Below the pieces are notes generated by a model. That model searched no databases, was not told the origin of the DNA, and saw only the letters and a program-made list of their open reading frames with translations. A stretch of DNA of 55,598 nt, filler included, from Sphacelaria rigidula (lineage: Eukaryota): assembly GCA_964200075.2 (NCBI GenBank). It is 5 parts of 5 records of this genome, joined end to end, with 100 filler letters (N's around TTAATTAATTAA, not from the genome) between each part and the next. Parts side by side here need not be neighbours in the genome. Positions count along the whole stretch, not along the records: positions 44,561 to 55,598 come from CAXNAA020005494.1; 4 more parts are not named here. One strand, written 5' to 3'. Position 1 is the first letter of the stretch. Every line of letters begins with the position of its first letter. Positions 11,042-55,598 of this stretch are shown one piece after another. A program made the position numbers and the translations under genes.

Positions 11042-11141
11042 NNNNNNNNNNNNNNNNNNNNNNNNNNNNNNNNNNNNNNNNNNNNTTAATTAATTAANNN
11101 NNNNNNNNNNNNNNNNNNNNNNNNNNNNNNNNNNNNNNNNN
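11042..11141. other. Artificial contig-concatenation linker (N44-TTAATTAATTAA-N44)
   Basis: Identical 100-nt linker, with stops in all six frames, recurs at 11042, 22183, 33322 and 44461. The segments between are 11041, 11041, 11039, 11039 and 11038 nt, i.e. size-sorted contigs. Confidence 0.97.
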
Positions 11142-19929: not shown

Positions 19930-20175
19930 TGCCCTCCGAAGTGCGGGAATGGTGGAAGTAAACGAAGGTGGCCACGGGCGGCGGAAGACGAAAAGGAATA
20001 ATATATATATATACACATACATATTTGTGTGATGTATGGAAGAGACGTGATGGGTGCCCGAATGTTGGAGGTGTGTTTATCAGGAGTAAGAACGGCGCTC
20101 CGTCTAGAAAGGGATGCGTGATCAGTGATCAAGTGACTGAAGCAAGGAACGAATGAGTACGCCCCCGCCCCCCCT
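19930..20175 (+). mobile_element. 3' fragment of the same LINE family, ending in a C-rich tail
   Basis: LCDVWKRRDGCPNVGGVFIRSKNGAPSRKGCVISDQVTEARNE* matches the C-terminus of the 20176-22153 copy and ends tgagtacgcccccgccccccctc. Confidence 0.85.
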
Positions 20176-22153
20176 CACGAACGTTATGGTGAATGAATTT
20201 CTGAAGCATGGGGAGGAAGGAATGATTGCCATGATGGTTATGCTATGTAACTGGATATTGGAAAACGAGTACACGCCAAAGAGGTGGAGAGAAGGAGTAG
20301 TTGTCAATGGTTCCAAAAAAAGAGACAAGGCTGACTCAGGGAACTATAGAGGGACAACGCTATTCAACACGATAGAGAAAACGTTCTGTAAGATTCTGAA
20401 TGATGGAGTAGGAATGATGCTAGAAAAGGACGAGAATATCAGCGAGGGAGAAGCAGGATTTACACCAAACGGTAGTTGCGTAGATCATGTGTGCACACCA
20501 GGTAATATTATTCAAGGTAGGAAAGACGCCGGGTTGACAACGTACTGTTCCTTTCTGGACGTGCAAAAAGCCTATGACACAGTATGGAGAAATGGGCTGT
20601 GGAAAAAGTTGTGGGAAACTGGGATCAGAGGAAAGATGTGGAGAATAGTAAAGAAGATGACAGAATGTGCCGAAAGTGCCATGATGCTAGACGGAGGAAT
20701 ATCCAAATATTTTTATATTCTACGAGGGGTTGCACAAGGGTGTACGTTATCACCCACTTTATTCAAGGCATTCGTTAATGACTTGATAATAGCAATAGAT
20801 GCAGCAAATCAAGGAGTCAAGGTGGGTGAAGATGCGATATCAGGATTGATGTTCACGGATGGTTTTGTGGGGATTTTAGAAACACCAGAAGGATTGCAAA
20901 AACAGATAGACAAGGCGCTAGAATACACCAGGAGATGGAGAGTGACAGCGGATGTTGACAATTGCGCGGTACTCGTCTGTGACGAAGATAAGAAAAACCC
21001 GGAGGAGTGGGGAGAAGAGGAACTGCCGATTGTAGACCAGTATACATACCTTGGCGTAGAGATCTCAAAACACTGTTATGGGGATGCACACATAAAAGGG
21101 TAAGGCATAGACGGGAAGGACGGACGTGATCCTCAGATATTCGCATCTAGACATTAGGATGAAGAGATCTAGCCTGATGAACGTGATCGTACCAAAGCTG
21201 GAATATGCGGGAAGAGTATGGGAGATGAAATTGGTGAAAAAGTTAGAAACAGTACAGATGGCAGCAGCTAAGAAGATACTTGGATGCTCGAAAACGACGA
21301 GTAATACAGCATTGAGCGCAGAGTTGGGACTGTACCCACTAAAAACAGAGACATGAGGACGTTGCGATGACAGTATAGCGTAAAGAACATGCAGAGACAG
21401 AGAGCCGTAGTCGATAAGGCTGTATGGAAGAAAATTACGATAGGGAAGGCTGGAATAAGGTGGGATATAGAAGTCGAGAAAGTATGTAAGGATATGAGAG
21501 GAAACTGAGACGAAGTACTGTCCATAGGTGAAGGCGCGGGGTACAAGACAAAAGTAAGAGACATGATATAAACAAGGGGAAAAGAAGCGCTCGGACGCAA
21601 AGTAGACGAGGAAGAACACCTAAAGATATGCGGGAGGTGGAGAGAGGGGATCGGGATGAAGACATATCTGCATGGCCTCATGGACGTGGCGAAAAAATGA
21701 AAATGCGATTTCGGGGTGGGGGACCTGGACCTACCAGAAAGAAGAAAAATACATCAGAGTAGTCGAGAGGAGGAGGAAGTAGATGCACAGAATTGCTCCG
21801 GTGACAAAGCAATAGAGGGTAGAACTCATATAGTGTCAGAATGTGAACTGTACAAGGAGGCACGGGACGTGCTAGAGGGGGAAATGCGGGACGTGAACGC
21901 AGGTGGCATGAAATCGTCTGATGCATTAGACAGTAGGGAGGGAACGATAGCTACACTAGGAGATAAATGGTGGCCACAGACGGCGAAACAGGACGGGGAT
22001 AGGATATGTACACGGTTTTTTTGTGACGTATGGAATAAACGTATTGAGCACCTGGATGTTGGAGGTGTCTGTAATAGGAGTAGGAGCGGTGCTCCTTCTC
22101 GCAAGGGATGCGTGGTCAATGATCACATGACGAAGACTAGCAATAAATGAGTA
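20176..22153 (+). mobile_element. 5'-truncated LINE: RT domain (pseudogenised) and C-terminus
   Basis: PKRWREGVVV..DSGNYRGTTL, EAGFTPNGSCVDH, FLDVQKAYDTVWR, GVAQGCTLSPTLF, LMFTDGFVG (catalytic FADD changed to FTDG), YTYLGV. Stop at 21103, then frameshifted continuation to GRTHIVSECE...KTSNK*. Confidence 0.93.
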
Positions 22154-22182: not shown

Positions 22183-22282
22183 NNNNNNNNNNNNNNNNNN
22201 NNNNNNNNNNNNNNNNNNNNNNNNNNTTAATTAATTAANNNNNNNNNNNNNNNNNNNNNNNNNNNNNNNNNNNNNNNNNNNN
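22183..22282. other. Artificial contig linker
   Basis: Same N44-TTAATTAATTAA-N44 spacer. Confidence 0.97.
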
Positions 22283-33321: not shown

Positions 33322-33421
33322 NNNNNNNNNNNNNNNNNNNNNNNNNNNNNNNNNNNNNNNNNNNNTTAATTAATTAANNNNNNNNNNNNNNNNNNNNNNN
33401 NNNNNNNNNNNNNNNNNNNNN
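33322..33421. other. Artificial contig linker
   Basis: Same spacer. Confidence 0.97.
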
Positions 33422-33586
33422 AGAGCTTGCGACCTGCGTCCCCGACAACGCAGAGCACTGCCAGCGATCGCTTTCTCACAAACAAGCTCTTTACACCCCC
33501 CAGTGGTCACACTCTTCTCCACCGCGTCCTCTGTTACCGTCAAACACCAATTCCAACCGACAACAACTACAACCAACACCAGGAAC

Positions 33587-36500
33587 ATGGCACCTACGAC
33601 GGTCAACATCTTGCCCCTCCTGGCCCTACTTCTCACCCCTGCAACTCACGCCTTCGTGGCCCCTGCTAACACTCGCGGAGTATCGCTGATGGCCACTCTC
33701 CAGCGGCCGGCGGCCGCGTCCACCACAACGCTGTCGTCGGCCCGTACAGCACCACTGCGATCCACCTCTTCCGCTGCAGTAGTTCGCATGGCCGCGGATA
33801 CCAATGCTGCCGCCGAAACACCCGCCGCGGAGACTACCGAGCAGACAGTGGCAAGACTCCGCGAGACGGCCGCAGCGCTACGCTCGCAAGCTGTCGAGCT
33901 CGAGAGCAAGCGCGAACAAGAACGCCGCGCCGGCGCCGACCGCTCTTTCAATACCTTCGACTCCAATAACGACGGCACCGTGGACGTGCGAGAGCTGCAG
34001 GCTGGCCTGGTGAAGCCTCTGCGTCGGAGCTTCACCAAGCAGCTCACGGCACGTATGGGTCGCAAGCCCAGCGAAGAGGAGGTAGACGCCCGCATCGCCG
34101 AGCTCCCAGGAGGGACGCTGTTTCCAGAAGACCTGGCCCGGAAGCTCATTGCCGTGTACGACCAAAACAGCGACGGTGTGTTGCAGCAGTCCGAATTCGC
34201 GCCTACCGAGGAGCTCCGCATGAGACTTGAGAACATGTTCCGCGAGCAACGGGAAGAGGAGCGCTTGGTTAGGGTGGCGGAGCGGGAGCGGGAGATGGCG
34301 GAGAAGCTCGCGGCCGAGGATGGGGTGTCGGGAGATGTGGTTCTACGTGACGTTGAGGTGAACAACGGCGAGCCGACATCGACGGACAGGGCGTTGTCGG
34401 CGCTGGCGTACCTGTTGCCGCTGGTGGACGGGATGTCGTACGCGGGGCACTTGTTCACGTCGCACCCGGAGCAGATGGCTGTATTGCAGCCATTGGCGGC
34501 GGTGTTGCTGGCTGTCCGGTCGTTACCGTTCGCGATGCTGATCGGCTTCTTCGGGCTGTCGTCGTTGAGCAACAACCCTCAGATCAACAAGCTCGTGAGG
34601 TTCAACATGAGACAGGTGAGAGCTTGTGCTTGGTTGGGTTGATGTTTACGGTTGTGATGGTACGTGTGAGGGTCAGGGCTGTAGCTGCATTGGCATTCAC
34701 GTTGCCTGCCTTGTCGTTGCCTCTCCCCCACATATTCCCCCCCGCGCACGTCTCTGTGTTGTAGTAGTCAAAACACAATGCTATCACTAGTCGGTATCAA
34801 ATGATATTGTCGAGTTTGTAAAACAAAATCGACGTCGATCGGTGTCTACATGGGTTTCGGTGATCCTGTTCGTTGTAGATGTGTCATTTCGCAACACAGA
34901 CGTGTTTCATTTGCCGTGCAGTAGTGTAGATTGAAGAGCAAGAACTCACGCGCTGCACAGTTCGTCTCAAAGGCCGTCGGTGTATTTCCAAAGATGGATC
35001 CGGGGTGGCACCCGGCGAACCACATCAGTAAACGCCACCCTCGTCGAGCACGCACAGAGGTTGGTCATGATACGAAAGGGTACGTTGCCAACGGACGAAC
35101 CCTCCCGATATGTACAGCCGGTGATCACACCTCATGGAACTTCCCTCTTCGAATGTCTGACGTGGTTAGACTGCCATCGCCGTCCCCGTCCAACCCTCGC
35201 GTTACGATAGACATCGTATCCCACGGGGTCCTCACGCATCCCTTGTCAAGTTTTTTAATCGTATCCTCCGATAATACGGGAGATGCTACATGTGACCTGT
35301 AATACAAATGGATCGGATGTACGGATTCGAGGAAGTGATCCAGATCACCTCTGCGGACTGAACGTCCCGACATACGTCCGGATGTCTGTATAGTTTCCGC
35401 AACTAGTCACATCTTCTCTCGACGGGTTTCGTATCTCGTCGGCGAGGTGGTGTATCCGGGAAGGAATGCACATACTGTCGACGTCGCACGGATACCATTC
35501 AGTTTTCGGCGCGATTCAATCAACAACGTTTACATGTTCTTGTCCAGTGTTGGAATGTGAACACTGAGCATTGAAGAATGCATGAGATCCACGCGGTGAC
35601 TCACTGTTCTGCGAATGCCTAGTACTGTGCATGTAGCGTCAGCGTATCGGAAGCGAATCGCTGAAATTACTGCACCGCACCCCCGTAATGATAACGACTG
35701 TCGAACAAAAATGGACCTTCGATTTTTTCCGCCACCATTCTTCCCTCAAAGATATAGACCACTGCACAGCCCAACTACTTCGAACCGTCCGTGCATTCTT
35801 GATCGCGACATACGGCCGGAACGAAACAATGGCAGATCTCTGTCTCGCCACTTTGATGCTTTCGACACCGATCTCATACGTGCTTCCTTGCCGTGATGTT
35901 ACAAGTCCGACAACTACTGCACCATTTGATCGAGAAATAGCAAGAAGTGGGACATGAGTTTTATTCATGTACTGAGTCTCGTGTCCTCTGCGAATTCCGT
36001 GTGATTTTTCCGAATGAGTTGCAGCAAAAGTACGTCCGGCTTAAGACGTGGTCTGTTGTAACTGATATTCCTGATTTGCTTGTCTCGGGGAGACGAGCAC
36101 TCCGCTATCCTCGCTAGTCTTATTTGGAAAGTCCACATACATGCTGGGCGAGAGCACTATCGGAGGCGAAATGTTTTGAGGAAGAGTTCCATGGGGTTTA
36201 TTTCGAAACCAAAACCCACTCTCCATTTTGGTCTTTTCCGGGGAGTATGCGCTAGGTATGCACCGTCGAGCCGACCTCTTCAAGCGGAAAAACACGCGAA
36301 TCTGTCACTTTCAAGCCGAAAGGTCACGAACTACCGACGGCATTTCGAATCCGAATTGGGAGTGTAGATGATCCGCGGAAAAAGGAAGGAGCACGGATTG
36401 GATATCCAGCTTGGGCAAAACCGGATCAAGTCGGTCGAGTATAATATCAGATGGTGGCCCTGGTATATATCGACCCAATTTTGATGCTCTTCTCGACTTC

Positions 36501-44460: not shown

Positions 44461-44560
44461 NNNNNNNNNNNNNNNNNNNNNNNNNNNNNNNNNNNNNNNN
44501 NNNNTTAATTAATTAANNNNNNNNNNNNNNNNNNNNNNNNNNNNNNNNNNNNNNNNNNNN
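44461..44560. other. Artificial contig linker
   Basis: Same spacer. Confidence 0.97.
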
Positions 44561-45660: not shown

Positions 45661-46270
45661 ACTTCGCTACTGTACATCTGATGGGGCGTTCGACGAGTGG
45701 TGGGGCGTCATTCTACTCAGTTTGGTCCTTGGTTCTTGGATAGGTTCTCTATTTATGAAGCACTTCCGGATTGGCGCCAACACGGCTAGACTTTCCGTTT
45801 ACGTAGTGGTCGCGGTTAAGTGTGGGGTTGGAAGCCCTCCTTTGCTCATACGCATGAATTATGGCTAACGTCGGGATCGTTTTTTGTACTTGGCCATTTT
45901 GCTCAATCCTTTCACGCATGCGAGACCCATGACGTTGATACGTGCGGCACTGCTGCCACGCGCGTCACCAGTGGCTCACCACTAGTTATGGTCATTAAAA
46001 TTATTACTATTAGTTCCGTCACATTAACTCGATATCTCGAATCCGCGCCCGTAAATCGATTAGCCAGCAGACGAAGGCGAAAGCCAAAGCGTTTACTCGA
46101 CAAAAAGGCACCTATACTACGAAAGATCCGTGAGAGACCGATTGAACAACAGGATAACTACCGAAAGCAAAAACGTCTCGTCGTGCGACCTCTCCGATTA
46201 CCTTGCCACGTACTGATGTCTACACAGTATAGTAACAGCAAGTAAGCCGGTACACGAAATGTCATAAAAT

Positions 46271-46478
46271 AACAAACGATCCCAAAATGAATATACTATC
46301 TAGCTATACAAAAACTTTACGTCCAATGAACCGTTGACATCTTGGTCTCATCATGCCAAGCTCTTGTTTCACAGAACAAGAAACGATCCCAACATGGATA
46401 TAGTATCTAGCTATACAAGAACCTTTCGTCGAATAAATCCTTGACACATTGGACTCGTCATACCAAGCTATTTATTTT
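46271..46478. repeat. About 107-bp direct tandem duplication
   Basis: aaacgatcccaa.atg.atata.tatctagctatacaa.aac...ttgaca..ttgg.ctc.tcat.ccaagct occurs twice. Confidence 0.85.
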
Positions 46479-46960
46479 GGCATTATCGTGAGTTGTTGGA
46501 AACGACCCTTACATCACTTGAGCCATTCCTCTCGGCCTATTCGTTATTCCACCTTCTGTTCTGTCTCTTCGGTTAACATGATAATCGCTACTTTGTTACT
46601 TCTCAGCTCAACCGTACCTAACTGTCACGCTAAACTCGAGTAGATGTTTGGAACTGTATTTTTCGTGATTCTCAGCAAAAAACACTCTTCACTTCAAGGC
46701 ATAGTACAGGTGACGTGAGCACAAGCCTACTAGCAACCACACATATGGTAGGAAGCTCCATGTATGGCCCAGCGCTCAGAGACAGCCTTCTCCATGGATA
46801 CAGGAACGCTCAAGCAGGTTTTCGTATCTTGGCGAGCGAGGGACAAAAATGCACGCGAGACTGCCGTCTATTTTTGAGGTCACAGAATTCGAGACATATA
46901 ACCGCCACAGTGTCAGATGATGAAAAAGAAATACAATAGTGCACAAGCTCTCAAGATACT

Positions 46961-49900
46961 TCAGCAAGTCGTCCCCGTTACAAGGGATATTTCGTCGGTT
47001 TCATCGAAGCACACATATCCCTCCAACGTGATATTGGCGTTGTTGAATCCGACATTTCCCGTCACCACGATGTGAGTGCTATCGGTCCATTCCGCCGTCC
47101 CAGCGACAGTGATCTCGTTGTTGATAAAGTCGATGCCATCCGACCCAGAGAAGTCGAAAGTGTAGTTACTCGTGATGGTGTTGGACTCGAAAACATTGTT
47201 CTCCCCATTCCACATTTTGAGAGCAGGCCTGGTAGATGAAAGGAGGGTGGAAAGGCGAAACGGCGGCGATGAAAACAAATATTGTATGTAGTGGCGTTTG
47301 GTGATGCGAAAATGTTGGAGACATGTCTACAAGGTGGTGACAAAGTGAGCGATTACCAGACAAGGCATATCACTAATTAAGATTCTTCGTCGGAAAAGGT
47401 TGCCTGTCAGTCAACTACAACATAATATCACATCTGTCCGAGCTTGATTCTCTTCGATCACCATCCCCACACCCAGATTTATTTTAATCGCGCCAACTAT
47501 GGTCATTCCCTCCCAGCTCGGATTCTCTCATTTCAGAGAAATATCAGTCACACCCAGCTGACACTCGCTCGCTTGAACCACCATGCGCATCCAGCTTGAC
47601 TACCACTGCACACGCGGCCAGTTGGCTACCTCCAAAATTCCTCCGGAGCGGTCAATTTTCGAGCCTTCCGAGGGCTCAAACGCCTTCAGAGGAATTGAAC
47701 GCATCCAGAGGGGTAGTTTTTGGTTTCCTCCAGAGGGATTAAATGCCTCCGGAGGCTTGTTTTTGCCTCGGAGGGCCGCGCATCCCTCCGGAGGCATTTT
47801 TCTACCCCGGAATTCATCCGGAGGGGTGCGCGGCCACCCAGAGCGGTAGGTTTTGGTTCCCTCCAGAAGGATTACAATCCTTCGGAGGCTTGTTTTGCCT
47901 CTGGAGGGCCACGCATCCTTCCGGAGGCATTTTTGGGGGTAGCTGAATGGCCGTGTGTGTGTACTCACAGGTAATTCGTAGGGTTCACCGTCACGTTGTT
48001 GCCATACACAAGGTTGTCATTGGAGCTACTCGTCAAGTAGATGCCATGCGAGGCGGCGTCGATCTTGTTGTTGGAGATGTCGGCGTTGGAACTGCTCGAT
48101 ACGCTGATTCCACGAGAGTAGGTGTCGTGCACGGCGTTGTCTGCGGCCAATAACAAGGTGCACCGCCCGTAGTAGTCACACACGTTCCGCCAGCCCAAGG
48201 TTAAAAAAGTCAAGTCAACCGCTCCACAACGTGCAAAACATCGAGAGAAATATCGCGTGCGCGTCCGGTAGAATAAGTACACGAGGCACACAAAAAATAC
48301 TCTCACTCGCTTTTTGGCTGAGAAGATGTTTCCAACTACAAATATATGCGTGTGGGTAGCGAGTCCACTCGTCCACCACGCTGCCACTCAGAACAGAGAG
48401 TGCAATTAGTTCCATACTATGGTGCAGGAACTATGATAATTCTGACGCCAATAAACATGCGAATGCTGTTGCGTCTCGTTTTTCGTCGGGATTCACGATG
48501 AATAGCGTGACTACAAGTCATTATCCATCGAGCAAAAATGCTGTACTTACTGTTGACGACGGCGTAGTCGCTGCCACTTTCAAGGTTGATGCCGTAGTAA
48601 AGTGCGTCCATGCCGAATAGCGCGTTGTTCTGGTAAAATGGACACAGCACAGCACCGCACATCAACGAATGGAGCCACCTAGGTTGACGTTCGCATCACA
48701 TGATGAAGCTTTCCACACGGTCATGTCGGCGAGCAGTATGTCATTTGCCACGTCTTGTCTTACCATAGATAGCATCTGCGGTACCTTCATGTCGGCGAAC
48801 AGGTTGTCGTTTGCCACGTCCTGTCTTACCATAGACAGCAGCTAGCTGCGGTCATCTCGAAATGGCCAGCATAACACGTGAATGTGACGGTTCGTGTCCC
48901 TTCAAGATCTTGTATTTTATCTACCAAGCTATCCACGCTGCCCATATCAACACCAAACACGATGCAAGCTGGGTGGGTAAGGTAAGAGGGGCACGCTGTC
49001 TGATTTACAATATAGTGATGTCGCAGTATCGTACATACTCGAAAGGTCCAGTGTTGATCAGCGCGCGGAACAAATCACTTCGTCCAAAAAACAAAAATCA
49101 AAATCACCTGGACAGAAGAGCCGGTAGACCCACTGATGGTTATGCCGTACGGTGCCAGACCGTCAACGAAAAGAATGATGTTGTCATGGATCGTCAACGT
49201 ATCTGAGCTCTCCGCACCGATCCCTGTCCAAGACAACGAAGATCGTCCAACCAAGCCCGTTCAGCGAACCCAAGATAATAAGAGTAAGGTCAAGTCAAGT
49301 GAACATACAGCGAACAACAACCCTCGACAGAGAAGGCCAAAAACGGAGGGCACAGTGTCGAATCAATTCTGGTCGAACCGACAAACAGATTAAAACGATA
49401 ACGAGGAAGAGATTAGCCATATCATGTGGCATGTTGCACATCGTGTGCTATGTGCTGTTTTGTGGTTTTTGGTCACTTCGAGCTAGGTCGTAACAAGAGG
49501 TCGGACGTTCTCCTGCACTCCACTCGTGCCGTGGCCCATCAACTCACACTCGGGTGTTGGTGCTTGTAGTTGTTTGATATCAGCCCTCGGAAAGGAAACA
49601 CACCATTACCAACAATTAACTTGTAGTCCACCTCTGCCACACCGCATATGATCCGGTGCAAAGTGGGGGCATTCAATAAGCCAAAGCTGGAGGTAGCGAA
49701 GAAAACCCGAGATACATCAGACCGAATTAACACAAGCCCCGAAACACAAGGAGCGGAATCCAGCTGACGGTGGGAAGAAAAAGATCGCTGCTTTTTTGCC
49801 TGTATATTCGATGTAACTCAGCGTGTTGCGGCGGATGTCACCCTTCTGGTTCCCAAGCATCTTGATGGCGGTGGACATGTGACGTAGCTCCGAGTCGTAA

Positions 49901-52900
49901 ACGTTCCCGTAAACGTAAACCGAATCATCAGGGCAGAAATCGTTAACCTGCAGAGAATTGGTTGACCGAAGTTACTTCACATCGATCACGTGAGAAACAT
50001 GATGAAAATATTCGTCGTGCCGAGGACGTGGCGATCAGCATGGGAGTTCAGGTCGGGGCATGGTCACTTGGGAATGAATTGTCTTGCTTCCATGGTTGTA
50101 CGCCACTACGCATAAATCAAGACATGCAGGCCCAGAAAAGTCGCATCCCATTTTGATCATCTGAAGTGCGAAGTCAGGAAAGGCACTGAATAATCTATGC
50201 AACCAACACAATGGTGAGATCAACCACGAGCAATGCCTACACGCTTGGTTGGTTCATGTGTGTATCTAAAAATTACCTTCCAGACGAGCGCCCTCAAGTA
50301 AGCCATCGCGGAATTGACGACGTCCTTTGGACCGCAGGACAAGAAATAAGAAGAAATACAACAAGAAAGCGTCAGCGGTTGAAATGGTAGTGTGTTGGGA
50401 TTGGCTCGACTTGGGTCATTCAGTCCACATCTACATTGACGTGCCGGAACAACCGACTTTGCGTCGGTACTAAAAGGAGAAAGTGCAGGCATTCGTTGAT
50501 GTACCATTGTGGACAAACACACAGTGGATCAATCGACGCCACGGCACGACGGTAACAGCAGTGTCGAACTCACCATTCGTGCTTCGCCCATGTCGCTTAG
50601 AGCCTCAACATCGCATGCGCTCTCGTCGGTAACTTCAGTGATTGCGCTGATATAGCTTTGTCCGTCGCTCGTTTCCGTGTCGTAAGCGTTATTCACCGTG
50701 TCCCATCCCACCACCTCAACAACGTCAACAAGTGTTGCAGATGAGTACGCTCACATTGGACATACTTCCTTGGAGCACATGTGTAACATACCGGTTAGTG
50801 CATAGCGCGCTCAACTCTTTGCTTTGCCGATTTAGGGCTGAGAAAAGTATTGTCTTTGCACGTCTGGTTTGTGAAGACATTCCTCTTCGAGACCTCTCCA
50901 CACCCAAGAAGGGTTCGGATGTAACGCAAGCCAAACGACAGGGACAGCCGACAGAATCTCTCGGGTAAGATCGGCACGAGTTTACACATCGGGCAATGGA
51001 CACAACAATAGTTCATTATTGCTTTATGGGAGAGGAAGCAAGTACATCGATACACTACGCATTATTGGATACTCACAATAAATACATGTGTCGAAAGCGT
51101 CCGCCATTAGTCCATCGTAATGCCAACGGATTAAAATACGTTGCCATGATGCACAGTGTATAAATGAATAGATTATGGGGTACTAAATCATCTATCGATA
51201 GCCTTCGCTAAACAGATAGGAGTGGAGCCAAAGCGTTGATGTACGTTAAGAGTTATACGCAGTCTTCGAGCATCAACGGCAGTAACACGACCATATCCAC
51301 AACCATTTGAGGCGATAGTACGTGATAGCCCATTGTGGAAGGTTAACTCCCCCTCCCCGGAAACGGATGCGTGGTCAATGGTCAAACGGCTAAGGCAAGT
51401 AACACATGAGAACGCCCCCCCCCTCCCCGGAAACGTTGTACAGGTAGTTACTGGTTGGCCACCGTGTGACCTGCTGTAGACCGAGACAGGTATTGGTGGC
51501 CCCGATGCAAACCCATTGATTGCCTGACAAGCAACAGCATTGATGGCCATGGGTTGAATTCGGTTTGACCAGCACGGGCGCTGATGGGCGTAATCCAGAG
51601 CCTATTACAAAGGAAATTCCATGACACAAAATATATTTACAATCCATTATGTTGACATTGCTGTTTTTTTCGTTCATTTAATCCAACGCTGCCTACAACA
51701 GCTATTGATGAACGGTGGTATTAATCGCTTGATGGTGATCATTCATTGAGATTTATATTTTCCGAGCCCATGTAGCGGCAATGTCCTATTACGCAGTCTG
51801 TTGTGTGGGGGTATACGCACATATCACAAACAGACGAAGAGTACTGCAGAACTCCAGGCGCCTTTGCCTATCCGAGAAAGAACCATCGATATCCACCCAC
51901 ATCACACCAACAACAAAGCTCATATACCTTAATCCACTCATGCACATAAACGTTCCGAATCTGTAGAAGCCTGAGATCATTTCGTTGAACCCATAATTTA
52001 GGTATCAGAAGAGTAGTTGCTGAACACACGCTAGATCACATCATAGGTGTGGCAAAAGAACATTGAGGGTATCTATCGATGGAAATCGCGTACCACGAGA
52101 GGTTCTGGGCTGTAATCATGACCCATGACTGAAGATGAAGAAATTTATCATCGAGAGCAATGCTGACGGTAATATCGGCTTCTATTGCAGCAGGTCATAT
52201 TACTCGTTTGTCCTTTTCCTGGGGTGGGAACTCGAAACACGGTGTTTGTTGCATCCCAGTGGTTGGTCACCCTTGTGTTCTCGAAGTCAAGGCTTCCTCC
52301 GTACGCCCGCAGGTTGATTACGGTCGCGTTTGAGTCGCCAAAAGAGGGATTGCTCAGGAGCCGCAGCTCGCTGACGTCCCCCCCCGAGTCAGGTCCCCAC
52401 ACCTGCAGCATTGCATCAGATTGCCATATTCAATCAAGCACACGATGTCGAAAACCAAAATCAAGACAAAACACCAAGTGGGGTATTGGATTTCAGGGAT
52501 GGATGGGGAGATGCACGGGTGGGACGGGGAGGGAGGGGGGGGGGGGGTGGCACGTAGCAGTCGCGTTTGTTTCGAGAAATCCACTGCCACGTTACCTGCG
52601 CTACCATCTACGGTGCCACCTAAAGGATACCCACGCCGTCGTGCCTTGTGCTTACCGGGCACAGCGGTGCCATCACGATTATCATGATGCCGAATCTTGA
52701 CTAAGAACCCCCTCCAACGTCAACTCTCAGACAATTTGATTATCCGAACCTCAACCAAAATGAACTTCACAGCGGCGCGGCTCACTACACGGTCAGAGGG
52801 TATGCAGCTATGCGTACATGCGAGAAGAGCACACGCCGGAACGTGATTTGTTGACCGAAGAGAGATCGAGAACTGAATGGTCGCGGACGGCTGACAAGGG

Positions 52901-53959
52901 AAAGGCAAGATCTGTACGCTTTTACCTCAGCAGAGAGACGACCACACTTCACACACACCACTGACATCTGAGACAGAGGAGCCAGACGGTCGCCAGCGGT
53001 CACACGAACGGCCCAGACAACAAGAGAAAAAGGGGGATTTGCGAGAGAGAGATAATCTACGCAAATGCCGATATGGGAACGACGATGGTAAGTGTAATGC
53101 GTGAGAGGACCGCGTGCTTAGAGGACCGCGCCGTAGTTCAAAATACCTCAGGATCGACGTTTTTCGAAACTCATCAGGTCAGTCCCCGCAGGTACCACGC
53201 CCCTGACCCTGACCCCAACACTAACCCTAACCCTAACCCTAACCATAGGGATGTTCAAATTCCGATGCAATCCTCTAAGCACACGGTCCTCTCACGCATT
53301 ACAGTAAGGTCACCAGGGAGCAACATTGGCACTCTATAGCCAAGTGAAACGAAATGCGGGCCTTTCAGCTCTCAAGAGAAAGAAACGTCGGCTAGTGCGC
53401 AGTGTTCAGATGTGTTCAGATGACACCTCTGCTTAAGGCAGGCAAGGAGATATGGGTACTGTTACCGCGACTGCCAGTTTGTGAACGTTCGATCGATTCA
53501 ATTGCTGTGTGTTAGGCTTGGCCATCGAGACTCTTCTATTGAATCGAGTGACGAGCCAGGCTAACCTTTTTCAAGACCGATGGGCCCGACATACAGTACC
53601 TGGAGGGTTATGCCGTCCTGTACGTACAGGTCCTGCTCCAGCAACCATGTGCCTGTTGCCTCGCTAGTGTAGGCATTTGTATCGGGGTCCACGGCATAGA
53701 GGGGGGAAGACGTGTCATCCCCTCCGAGCGCACGCCAGATATCGTCGATGGTGGCACATCCCCCGCGCTGCCCGGAATCCGCGGCTTCGACGTAAAGGAT
53801 CCCCGCAGTAGTATTCCTCCTGAAGCTCACTTCCTTACTGGCATCGCACTCAGGTTTCGGAATTGTCCCGCTTGTCGAAGAATCGCTGCTGGAGCCGCTG
53901 CACGAGCCCGGGCGCAAGAGGACCGCGGGGATCACCCACATCAACGCCTTGAACGCCAT
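46961..53959 (-). CDS. Mannuronan C5-epimerase-like beta-helix protein lacking the catalytic motif (9 exons, 487 aa)
   Basis: Exons 53959-53600, 52402-52271, 50714-50574, 50324-50277, 49947-49800 (GC donor), 49223-49108, 48629-48551, 48140-47969, 47228-46961. They total 1464 nt; all phases join with no internal stop. Signal peptide plus brown-algal ManC5-E hallmarks: LYVEAADSGQRGGCAT, TGTWLLEQDLYVQDGITLQV.G...GGD..ELRL.S, INLRAYGGSLDF.NT.V.GWD, DG.SYISAI.EV, MGEARM, VYGNVYDS, SDTLTIHDN, then parallel beta-helix repeats. Confidence 0.9.
47611..47957. mobile_element. MITE family B copy 2, in the last intron of the epimerase-like gene
   Basis: Ends cacgcggccagttggctac / gtagctgaatggccgtgtg, with the same cctccggagg array as 22920-23252. 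It ends about 10 nt from the intron donor at 47968. Confidence 0.85.
48721..48853. repeat. About 66-bp direct duplication, intronic
   Basis: tcatgtcggcga.cag..tgtc.tttgccacgtc.tgtcttaccataga.agca..ctgcggt occurs twice. Confidence 0.8.
51349..51435 (+). mobile_element. Extremely 5'-truncated (~53 bp) LINE 3' end with a 17-bp target-site duplication
   Basis: ccccctccccggaaacg at 51349-51365 and 51419-51435 flanks gatgcgtggtcaatggtcaaacggctaaggcaagtaacacatgagaacgcccc, which matches the LINE 3' ends at 22107-22153 and 20113-20170. Confidence 0.85.
53200..53244. repeat. Interstitial telomere-like (CCCTAA)n repeat
   Basis: ccctgaccctgaccccaacactaaccctaaccctaaccctaacc inside intron 1. Confidence 0.7.
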
Positions 53960-54389
53960 TCTAGAGTGCTAGATTGAGGCGTTCGTGGACAAAGGGCGAA
54001 GAAGAAAGCGGATGCCAGATTCTGTAGGTATGGAGAAGGAGAAAGGAGCGCAACGGGGTGAAGGGGGCGTGAAACGACGTTTTGGTTTACAAGCGTACGG
54101 TTTGCGGGAAGGCGGCGTCTAATAACAGTTCCCAAAGTGTAGGGTTGTACATTGAGTGGTACCGGGAAATAGTGATGTTGCAGTTGTTCTCAACACGAGC
54201 TGGGTCAGCAATAAATCTCGCATTTGCATGTCACACCATAGCTTATCAAGCTTACCAAATCAGTCTGACTTGAGTATACCGGTTTGACCTGCAGACCAAC
54301 ATGGTAACGCACGGGACCGCCGCTGAATTGAGAAAAAAAGGGGGAAAAATGTGCTGCATAACGTATCACCTAACCGACGGAACAACAAC

Positions 54390-54480
54390 AAAATGAATCC
54401 GTCGGGATTCGAACTCGTGACCTCCATAACTGGAGTCAACTGCATCACTTGGAATAAAAGAGCGCAGCCGTGCCAAACGG
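54390..54480 (-). mobile_element. Degenerate tRNA-like / SINE head
   Basis: Minus strand ggaggtcacGAGTTCGAATCCCgacgg is a B-box/T-arm match; no complete cloverleaf. Confidence 0.4.
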
Positions 54481-55119
54481 AAGGTAGGGTGCTGCGCCAA
54501 ATTTCTGGAATGTTTGGCCGGAATTGTGCCAGGATCTCCTCCACGCAAGGACCCACAACTACACTAAGGATACACCCGTATTTCTCTATTTTCATGGAAT
54601 TATAGCATTTTTTTACTTTTCCCAGAAACCTCAAATCCCCCGAACTTTCTGTTTTTTTTCTTGACATCCCCGGGTAGATTGTGCGTAGTGATGATCAAAA
54701 GGTTGTGTCAAAATTTCAGCGCCCAACGCTTCGGATTACCCACCACCTGGCCTGAATTCATTCGCAAACCACTGTCAGCTGGCCCAGCTCGTATTACCCC
54801 TTTTTCTAGAAATCTAGCGCCCGTGGTCACAAACCTGGGAGACACTAAACTCTGAGTCATCATTATCGACGCTGTGTTTCCGGATATCTCCGAATTTTTC
54901 GGACATTTTGGGCTCTAGGTCCGGACACCTCTAAAATGAAGCGTCTGGCTGTTTTCTCCAAAGCTCCATGTTTGGAGAAGTACCAACAATCCAAAATGCA
55001 GCGCAGCACGTGGGCGAGCTGCCCTGCGTGTTTCGCGTGGGACCCGCAAGCGTCAGAGAGTCACCGGGAACCTTGTAAGTGACATTCTCAGCCATGTCGT
55101 AAAAACACGGGATATTAGA

Positions 55120-55531
55120 AATTGGGGATGGATCTTTTGTTGGGGATGAGAAACCCGGAAGATTAAAATCTTCGTATCCACACCAAATCGTCGAGATATG
55201 GTTCCATTTTTTCACCTACTGATAGCTATTGACAACTGCTACACACCATAGATATTTGGATTTCGATAATCGAAATGTTGGGGGTCCCAGGTGATTTTTT
55301 TGGGGGGGGGAGTTCCGGGTGTCCGAACGGACGCCAAAATTATTCCAAAATAGGTTTTTCACGTAGGACCCCAACATTTCGGTTATCGAAATCCAAATTT
55401 CTATGGCGTGTAAAAGTTATCAATAGCTACCAGTAGGTGAAAAATGGAACCTTATTTCGGAGATTTGGTGTGAGTACGAAGATTTTGATCCTCCGGGTTT
55501 CCCATCCCCAATGAATGATCCATCTCCAATT
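55120..55531. repeat. Imperfect long inverted repeat (~167-bp arms); fold-back element
   Basis: aattggggatggatc...aaaatcttcgta...ggttccattttttcacctactg...tttggatttcgataa.cgaaatgttgggggtcc (55120-55287) pairs with 55366-55531. Confidence 0.9.
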
Positions 55532-55598
55532 AACAGCCGATTCTCAAAAATGGGGTTGAAAAATAAAATGAGACTCAACTCAAAAGCCGTGCTTTCCC

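Follow-up and report, generated by a model that had tools for sequence, protein, structure and literature searches.

A predicted member of the mannuronan C5-epimerase family of Sphacelaria rigidula that lacks the DPHD catalytic motif

Mannuronan C5-epimerases (ManC5-E) form one of the largest families of wall enzymes in brown algae, with a mean of 27 genes per genome, and are thought to set the strength of alginate gels (PMC11468063). Here, we describe a gene on the minus strand of Sphacelaria rigidula DNA, at positions 53959-46961 of a joined stretch of 55,598 nucleotides (nt) from assembly GCA_964200075.2 (hereafter the window; the gene lies in the part taken from CAXNAA020005494.1), that by homology belongs to the brown-algal ManC5-E family and whose predicted product fails the catalytic features by which that family is defined. 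Nine exons join to 1464 nt, or 487 codons followed by TGA, with 0 internal stops (17 and 21 stops in the two alternative frames of the joined sequence); a preliminary description of the locus had given a complete, stop-free frame of the same exon count and length, which was recovered here through tblastn collinearity. With a probability of roughly 55%, we read the gene as a maintained, fast-evolving and catalytically dead ManC5-E paralog, encoding a secreted beta-helix whose scaffold has been kept and whose groove has been remodelled.

Catalytic motif and groove residues

The full-length relatives used for comparison, P0003, P0004 and P0006 (499-522 amino acids; Undaria pinnatifida ManC5-E/MEP by their source names), read RRNKMH(D/N)N(S/K)GYGFDPHDDSDFLTIHDN across the catalytic site, and the window has EYTGIGAESSDTLTIHDN where these relatives have GYGFDPHDDSDFLTIHDN. 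The replaced site (49180-49827, minus strand) spans the junction of exons 5 and 6, which reads ...RRNTLSYIEYTG|IGAESSDTLTIHDN against ...RRNKMHDNSGYGFDPHDDSDFLTIHDN in the three relatives: N-T-L-S-Y-I-E-Y-T-(G) is encoded at 49827-49800 and (G)-I-G-A-E-S-S-D-T-L-T-I-H-D-N at 49223-49180, with the 576 nt of intron 5 between them. The product therefore carries YTGIGAESSD in place of YG(F/I)DPH(D/E), and the preliminary description was right that the D-P-H-D core is gone and the adjoining LTIHDN strand kept. An alternative exon 5 or 6 that restores DPHD, which it had named as a way for the claim to fall, did not come to light: a motif scan in six frames of 46000-55598 found no segment coding for DPH. 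The scan met PHD just once, at 49429 in intron 5. A remnant of exon 6 was weighed as its origin and dismissed, since exon 6 and intron 5 are without DNA similarity (local score 15; shuffles average 17.3, with a standard deviation (SD) of 2.2), and the tripeptide is judged a chance occurrence. DNA contigs of X1, one of the sequencing runs listed for the locus, show 0 differences from the window over 49694-49970 and 48690-49241; X1 may be the assembly's own sample, and the agreement is therefore not independent proof of sequence accuracy.

In the characterized enzymes, the His of DPHD is the probable proton abstractor, Tyr314 of AlgG positions the proton-donating water, and an arginine in AlgG neutralises the carboxylate (PMC4444821). 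Variants of AlgE7 at Y149 and H154 have about 0.5% activity or less (PMC8824271). Since Tyr, Asp and His are all lost, epimerisation by the AlgG/AlgE mechanism would be excluded, if the protein is made; on this argument from homology with the enzymes of both papers, the conclusion of the preliminary description that the product cannot epimerise by the known mechanism holds.

The loss reaches well beyond the motif. P0004 was aligned over residues 203-414 (E=5e-14) with structure 4NK6 of Pseudomonas AlgG, a periplasmic poly(beta-D-mannuronate) C5-epimerase (PDB 4NK6, 4OZY, 4OZZ) that is nearest to the canonical relatives among solved structures, and the 56 identical positions were looked up in a MAFFT alignment of the product. 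One of the 15 ionisable positions (D/E/H/K/R/Y) common to P0004 and AlgG is kept (D250), against 25 of the 41 non-ionisable ones (G, N, S, P, aliphatic; Fisher p=2.6e-4); unselected decay should strike both classes equally, and the pattern of loss is therefore non-random. In P0004 numbering, the motif residues lost are Y281, D284, P285, H286 and D287. A 7-residue in-frame deletion in exon 4 removes Y214, S217, S219, Y220 and G221, which belong to a loop matching GYNQSKSYG of AlgG. Further losses fall on H305 (HGII to YGIT), R337, E361 and R380, and the product has Gly in place of K311, which aligns with Arg345 of AlgG. Equivalents of AlgG Tyr314, Asp317, His319, Asp320 and Arg345 are thus all absent (numbering from the P0004-4NK6 alignment and PMC4444821), and the core is poorer than that of P0004 in His (4 against 10), Lys+Arg (9 against 13) and Asp+Glu (19 against 32). 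The preliminary description, correct on the DPHD core, understated this extent: the SxSYG loop, the HGII histidine, the position aligned with AlgG Arg345 and more groove residues have gone as well.

Gene structure and relatives

The gene model was built by translation of open stretches and tblastn with P0004, and boundaries were set on AG acceptors and GT or GC donors. All nine exons were matched by P0004 in order, with E values of 1e-26 for exon 1 and 3e-7 for exon 9 at the two ends of the range and weak matches for exons 6 and 7 alone (E=3.8 and 2.2); no second ManC5-E-like sequence was found in the window by the same tblastn query. The product is identical to P0004 at 198 of 487 residues (MAFFT) and collinear with Undaria ManC5-E over its full length, and all length differences from the Undaria proteins, two 7-residue deletions among them, lie within exons and preserve the frame. 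Collinearity and identity with the Undaria proteins bear out the family assignment of the preliminary description. Shared with the Undaria proteins are the N-terminal KPECDA/RGGC, the beta-helix repeats, the LTIHDN strand and the CFDE...TC ending; missing are YGFDPHD, the HGII histidine and two stretches of 7 residues each, the GYxxSxSYG loop and KSNPEVF. Six of the eight family cysteines are kept, C313 and C385 of P0004 both being gone. Exon 8 alone matches the Pfam models NosD (PF05048; 31.3 bits, cut-off 23.6) and Beta_helix (PF13229; 28.5 bits, cut-off 25.9), which are the families recorded for P0003, P0004 and P0006; a Pfam scan of seven other exon pieces gave nothing above cut-off.

Acceptors are AG in all 8 introns and donors are GT in 7 and GC in 1; every splice site is usable. 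The position of intron 1 fits the relatives P0001 and P0002, which read through a GT right after the end of exon 1, and the start of exon 9 coincides with that of the single-exon fragments P0007, P0008, P0010 and P0011.

Exon 1 (53959-53600, codons 1-120; ATG at 53959-53957, donor CAG|gtactg) matches P0004 at 54% identity (E=1.4e-26) and encodes a hydrophobic N-terminus, then a linker rich in Ser, and the conserved cysteines of KPECDA and RGGC; the N-terminus is called a putative signal peptide solely on its hydrophobicity (Kyte-Doolittle means of 1.3-2.4 in the first 9-residue windows). Exon 2 (52402-52271, codons 121-164; acceptor ctgcag|, donor AGG|gtgacc) shares 23 of 44 residues with P0004 and is followed by exon 3 (50714-50574, codons 165-211; acceptor gttgag|, donor ATG|gtgagt) and by exon 4 (50324-50277, codons 212-227, DVVNSAMAYLRALVWK), which is 7 residues shorter than in the relatives and is without their GYHDSESYG loop. 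Exon 5 (49947-49800, codons 228-276 and 1 nt) ends in ...RRNTLSYIEYT-G before a GC donor, and exon 6 (49223-49108, codons 277-315) starts (G)IGAESSDTLTIHDN against (G)FDPHDDSDFLTIHDN in the relatives and continues with YGITISGS against HGIIASKR. Exon 7 (48629-48551, codons 316-341 and 1 nt; donor ACA|gtaagt) and exon 8 (48140-47969, codons 342-398), the piece with the beta-helix matches, lead to exon 9 (47228-46961, codons 399-487 and TGA), which carries the family-typical C-terminal CFDE...TC ending. All are on the minus strand. The predicted product has five N-x-S/T sequons (residues 49, 145, 390, 420 and 464), against none in P0004.

A second version of exon 1 (53795-53903) is present at about half depth in X1 and also in run X5; its 8 differing sites in 109 nt comprise 4 synonymous and 4 residue changes (S25I, A40D, R47W, N49D), and it could be an allele that has diverged or else a paralog of very recent origin. 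This variation within the sample adds little on selection. Depth in X1 is also elevated over 50460-50947.

A search with exon 1 among longer proteins yielded 6 from 495 candidates, 47-57% identical, and all 3 full-length ones carry DPHD; the exon 6 frame gave no candidate. An exhaustive HMMER search with exon 9 gave 5 matches at E <= 0.001, P0007 alone being close, and a word search among near lengths returned P0007 alone (1 of 4 candidates). P0007 and similar fragments are single-member Logan clusters from contigs of 1.2-8 kb. Metagenome scans with exon 9 and P0007 and with the 3 Undaria proteins produced 273 and 538 pattern stretches, respectively, with 0 relatives among them. Literature searches on alginate and mannuronan C5-epimerases brought up no report of a DPHD-less brown-algal ManC5-E; in the text of the survey by Mazeas et al. 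(2024), all ManC5-E of the brown-algal set surveyed are stated to have DPHD, which is taken as proof of genuine enzymes (PMC11468063).

Maintenance, decay and rival explanations

The preliminary description held that the gene is maintained rather than decayed. This stands in part: the contrast between residue classes, the G+C content at third codon positions (GC3), the survival of the frame under simulated neutral change and the rate of exon 9 speak for it, and the interval on that rate speaks against it. GC3 is 0.707 overall and 0.60-0.875 per exon in all 9 exons, beside a GC1 of 0.494, a GC2 of 0.447 and an intron GC of 0.486. In a neutral simulation of the whole coding sequence, with substitutions only and indels not counted, the frame and ATG survived in 12%, 4.6% and 1.4% of cases at divergences of 5%, 7.5% and 10%, respectively; when 32 splice bases had to stay unchanged as well, survival was 0.11 at 3% divergence, 2.5% at 5%, 0.4% at 7.5% and 0.06% at 10%. 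The divergence to be set against these figures comes from P0007, the only close relative found, a 125-residue Logan fragment made up of the final exon plus 45 residues read through from intron sequence. Exon 9 is identical to P0007 at 55 of 80 residues, ungapped and with the same final residue (Cys), and the intron flank, in the same frame, at 17 of 32 codons. By likelihood, profiled with simulations of neutral change, the flank distance is estimated as roughly 0.30 substitutions per site, with a support interval of 0.18-0.50, and the neutral-equivalent distance of exon 9 as 0.16 (0.12-0.24). If the flank distance is indeed near 0.3, the share that falls to the lineage of this gene is well above 7.5%. 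The ratio of exon 9 to flank rates has a median of 0.53 (95% interval 0.28-1.09; P(<1)=0.95), and exon 9 is, as far as its sequence tells, under fast evolution with weak constraint rather than strong conservation.

Several points weigh against a maintained gene, or leave it less secure. The rate-ratio interval includes 1 and concerns one exon of one relative, and its neutral yardstick is 32 codons in one ungapped alignment beside a splice acceptor. Substitutions between exon 9 and P0007 are no more conservative than neutral ones (mean BLOSUM62 -0.24 against -0.50, SD 0.31), and 21% of stop-free neutral simulations reach the observed value, so that this test is not significant. The residue classes of the groove comparison were picked by the analyst and the positions read by eye, in a MAFFT alignment that is uncertain near gaps, and retention of the beta-helix fold is a prediction from sequence. 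The donor of exon 5 is GC (CAG|gcaaaa, 49799-49798), a detail absent from the preliminary description; a weak alternative GT donor lies 18 nt upstream of the exon end (after 49818), in frame, and would give a product 6 residues shorter. Neither donor yields DPHD, and the frame breaks if neither is used. The searched protein collections (word-based and exhaustive HMMER searches) yielded no full-length or annotated ortholog. None of the 10 sequencing runs listed for the locus is on record as RNA, and contigs of X5, X1, X8 and X9 show no joint at any predicted intron, which is uninformative on expression either way. X8 and X9, whose kind is only guessed to be RNA, cover repeats and one non-repeat bin each, containing exon 6 (X8) or exon 3 (X9); a 151-nt contig of X9 on 50642-50716 leaves the locus at the exon 3 acceptor without continuing into exon 2 at 95% likeness. 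X5 (0.21 of words) is low-coverage DNA, because its contigs fall in introns.

In a rather unlikely alternative, the gene is an unprocessed pseudogene of young age: a ManC5-E paralog, already divergent, would have lost its function recently, and its frame would be open by luck. Large expanded families usually contain dead copies, and such a copy would account for the lack of RNA runs and splice joints, the non-canonical GC donor, an exon 9 substitution pattern indistinguishable from neutral with a rate ratio reaching 1.09, and the lack of an annotated full-length ortholog in the collections searched. It agrees poorly with the replacement of 14 of 15 ionisable residues and two in-frame 7-residue deletions in a scaffold that is kept, since a frame would by chance outlast far less change than this (simulated survival falls from 0.11 to 0.004 between 3% and 7.5% divergence). 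Nor does any exon show a relaxation of GC3 (0.71) toward the 0.49 of the introns, and the indels relative to the Undaria proteins are within exons and frame-preserving.

If the frame and scaffold are instead maintained, the groove could have been rebuilt for other chemistry, such as that of a lyase or esterase, on alginate or another wall polysaccharide; the Glu of AESSD, or the Tyr that lies one position upstream, might for instance be used. The near-complete replacement of the groove fits remodelling as well as loss, and lyases and epimerases with related sites are both found on the beta-helix fold (PMC4444821); we nevertheless regard a neofunctionalised enzyme as improbable, as a single sequence names no new conserved catalytic motif, the core is poorer than that of P0004 in His, Lys+Arg and Asp+Glu, and the SxSYG loop is deleted rather than replaced. 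Least probable of all, at long odds, is a wrong gene model, in which the true transcript uses other exons, or exons of a neighbouring gene, and the DPHD-less product is an artefact of joined frames. The one junction that requires a GC donor and the X9 contig at exon 3 would suit it. However, no segment in any frame of 46000-55598 codes for DPH, the exons are all collinear with the relatives with nothing left over, and intron 1 and the start of exon 9 fall where P0001/P0002 and P0007, P0008, P0010 and P0011, respectively, have them. GC-AG makes up 4.7% of Ectocarpus introns, the other 95.3% being GT-AG (PMC3787667), so that one GC donor among 8 introns is not odd, and the divergent second haplotype seen over exon 1 could account for the X9 contig.

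Under the preferred reading of a maintained but catalytically dead paralog, the locus would have arisen through duplication within the brown-algal ManC5-E family and would encode a secreted right-handed beta-helix of 487 residues. Scaffold residues, most cysteines and the N- and C-terminal regions have stayed and the catalytic constellation is replaced or deleted, leaving a product presumably unable to abstract or re-donate the C5 proton. Such a protein would act without catalysis, probably by occupying or organising cell-wall polymer along the remodelled groove (binding, spacing or decoy), and selection would still hold it folded and translatable despite its fast evolution; the specific wall role, be it binding, spacing or decoy, is speculation. 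More tentatively still, and with clearly less confidence than for the gene itself, the window gene and that of P0007 might represent an unrecognised brown-algal lineage of secreted, dead ManC5-E beta-helix proteins, selected, fast-evolving and non-epimerising in the wall, which might restrict the formation of G-blocks locally through the capping or spacing of alginate chains, or be decoys for factors that target active epimerases.

Non-catalytic roles and inactive members have parallels. In work of 2003 attributed to Gimmestad and to Jain, polymer formation is reported to require the AlgG protein for reasons separate from its epimerase activity, which gives the family a non-catalytic role. Among carbohydrate-active enzymes, the paralogs without catalysis include the chitinase-like lectins and Phytophthora sojae PsXLP1, a decoy of the GH12 enzyme PsXEG1; like the window gene, these keep a secreted enzyme fold, have lost catalytic residues, evolve fast and may bind or serve as decoys, and they differ in fold and organism, the window gene being known from sequence alone. 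AlgY of Azotobacter vinelandii, a homolog of the secreted mannuronan epimerases, is inactive on mannuronan (PMC4444821) and offers a precedent for an inactive family member kept in a genome; it differs in being bacterial, of the AlgE type with R-modules and the result of an independent event, and is compared here by description rather than by sequence. The most recent survey of the whole family equates gene counts with enzyme diversity (PMC11468063). If the gene is a maintained non-catalytic member, part of the ManC5-E expansion is not enzymatic, a non-catalytic alginate-related protein is added to a wall in which few proteins are known, and a natural scaffold-only variant becomes available for studying polymer binding by epimerases; if it is a pseudogene, it is merely a caution for gene counts.

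Repeats and other features of the window

Elsewhere in the window, 20 long open frames were scanned with Pfam and 2 gave matches. A 320-codon frame at 20141-21103 (plus strand) matches the reverse transcriptase model RVT_1 (E=6.7e-21) and is a retroelement remnant or copy. In a 422-codon frame at 33374-34642 (plus strand), two EF-hands pass the Pfam cut-offs and a stretch resembling Tic20 falls just short of its own (25.8 against 28.6 bits); this frame is possibly a gene for a calcium-binding protein of the plastid envelope. The window contains 361 N letters (8112, 11042-11141, 22183-22282, 33322-33421, 44461-44560), in one run of 9 and eight of 44, with pairs of runs about 11.1 kb apart; these look masked or withheld rather than like assembly gaps.

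The introns of the gene contain high-copy repeats. In intron 1, an inverted repeat at 53093-53303 has 46-nt arms (53093-53138 and 53258-53303) that are 85% complementary and enclose a telomere-like (CCCTAA)x7.3 array at 53201-53244; the element is called very high-copy and resembles a miniature inverted-repeat transposable element, because its summed contig depth in X1 is 10^4-10^5 times that of the flanking unique sequence. A high-copy repeat in intron 2 (51192-51435) is the highest-depth bin in the runs guessed to be RNA. The high-copy stretch assigned to intron 8 (47532-48019) includes a direct repeat of about 100 nt, whose copies at 47702-47801 and 47835-47934 (133 nt apart) are 84% identical and rich in CCTCCGGAGG-like palindromes, and intron 6 carries a 57-nt direct repeat at 48721-48843, in two copies 66 nt apart that are 88% identical.

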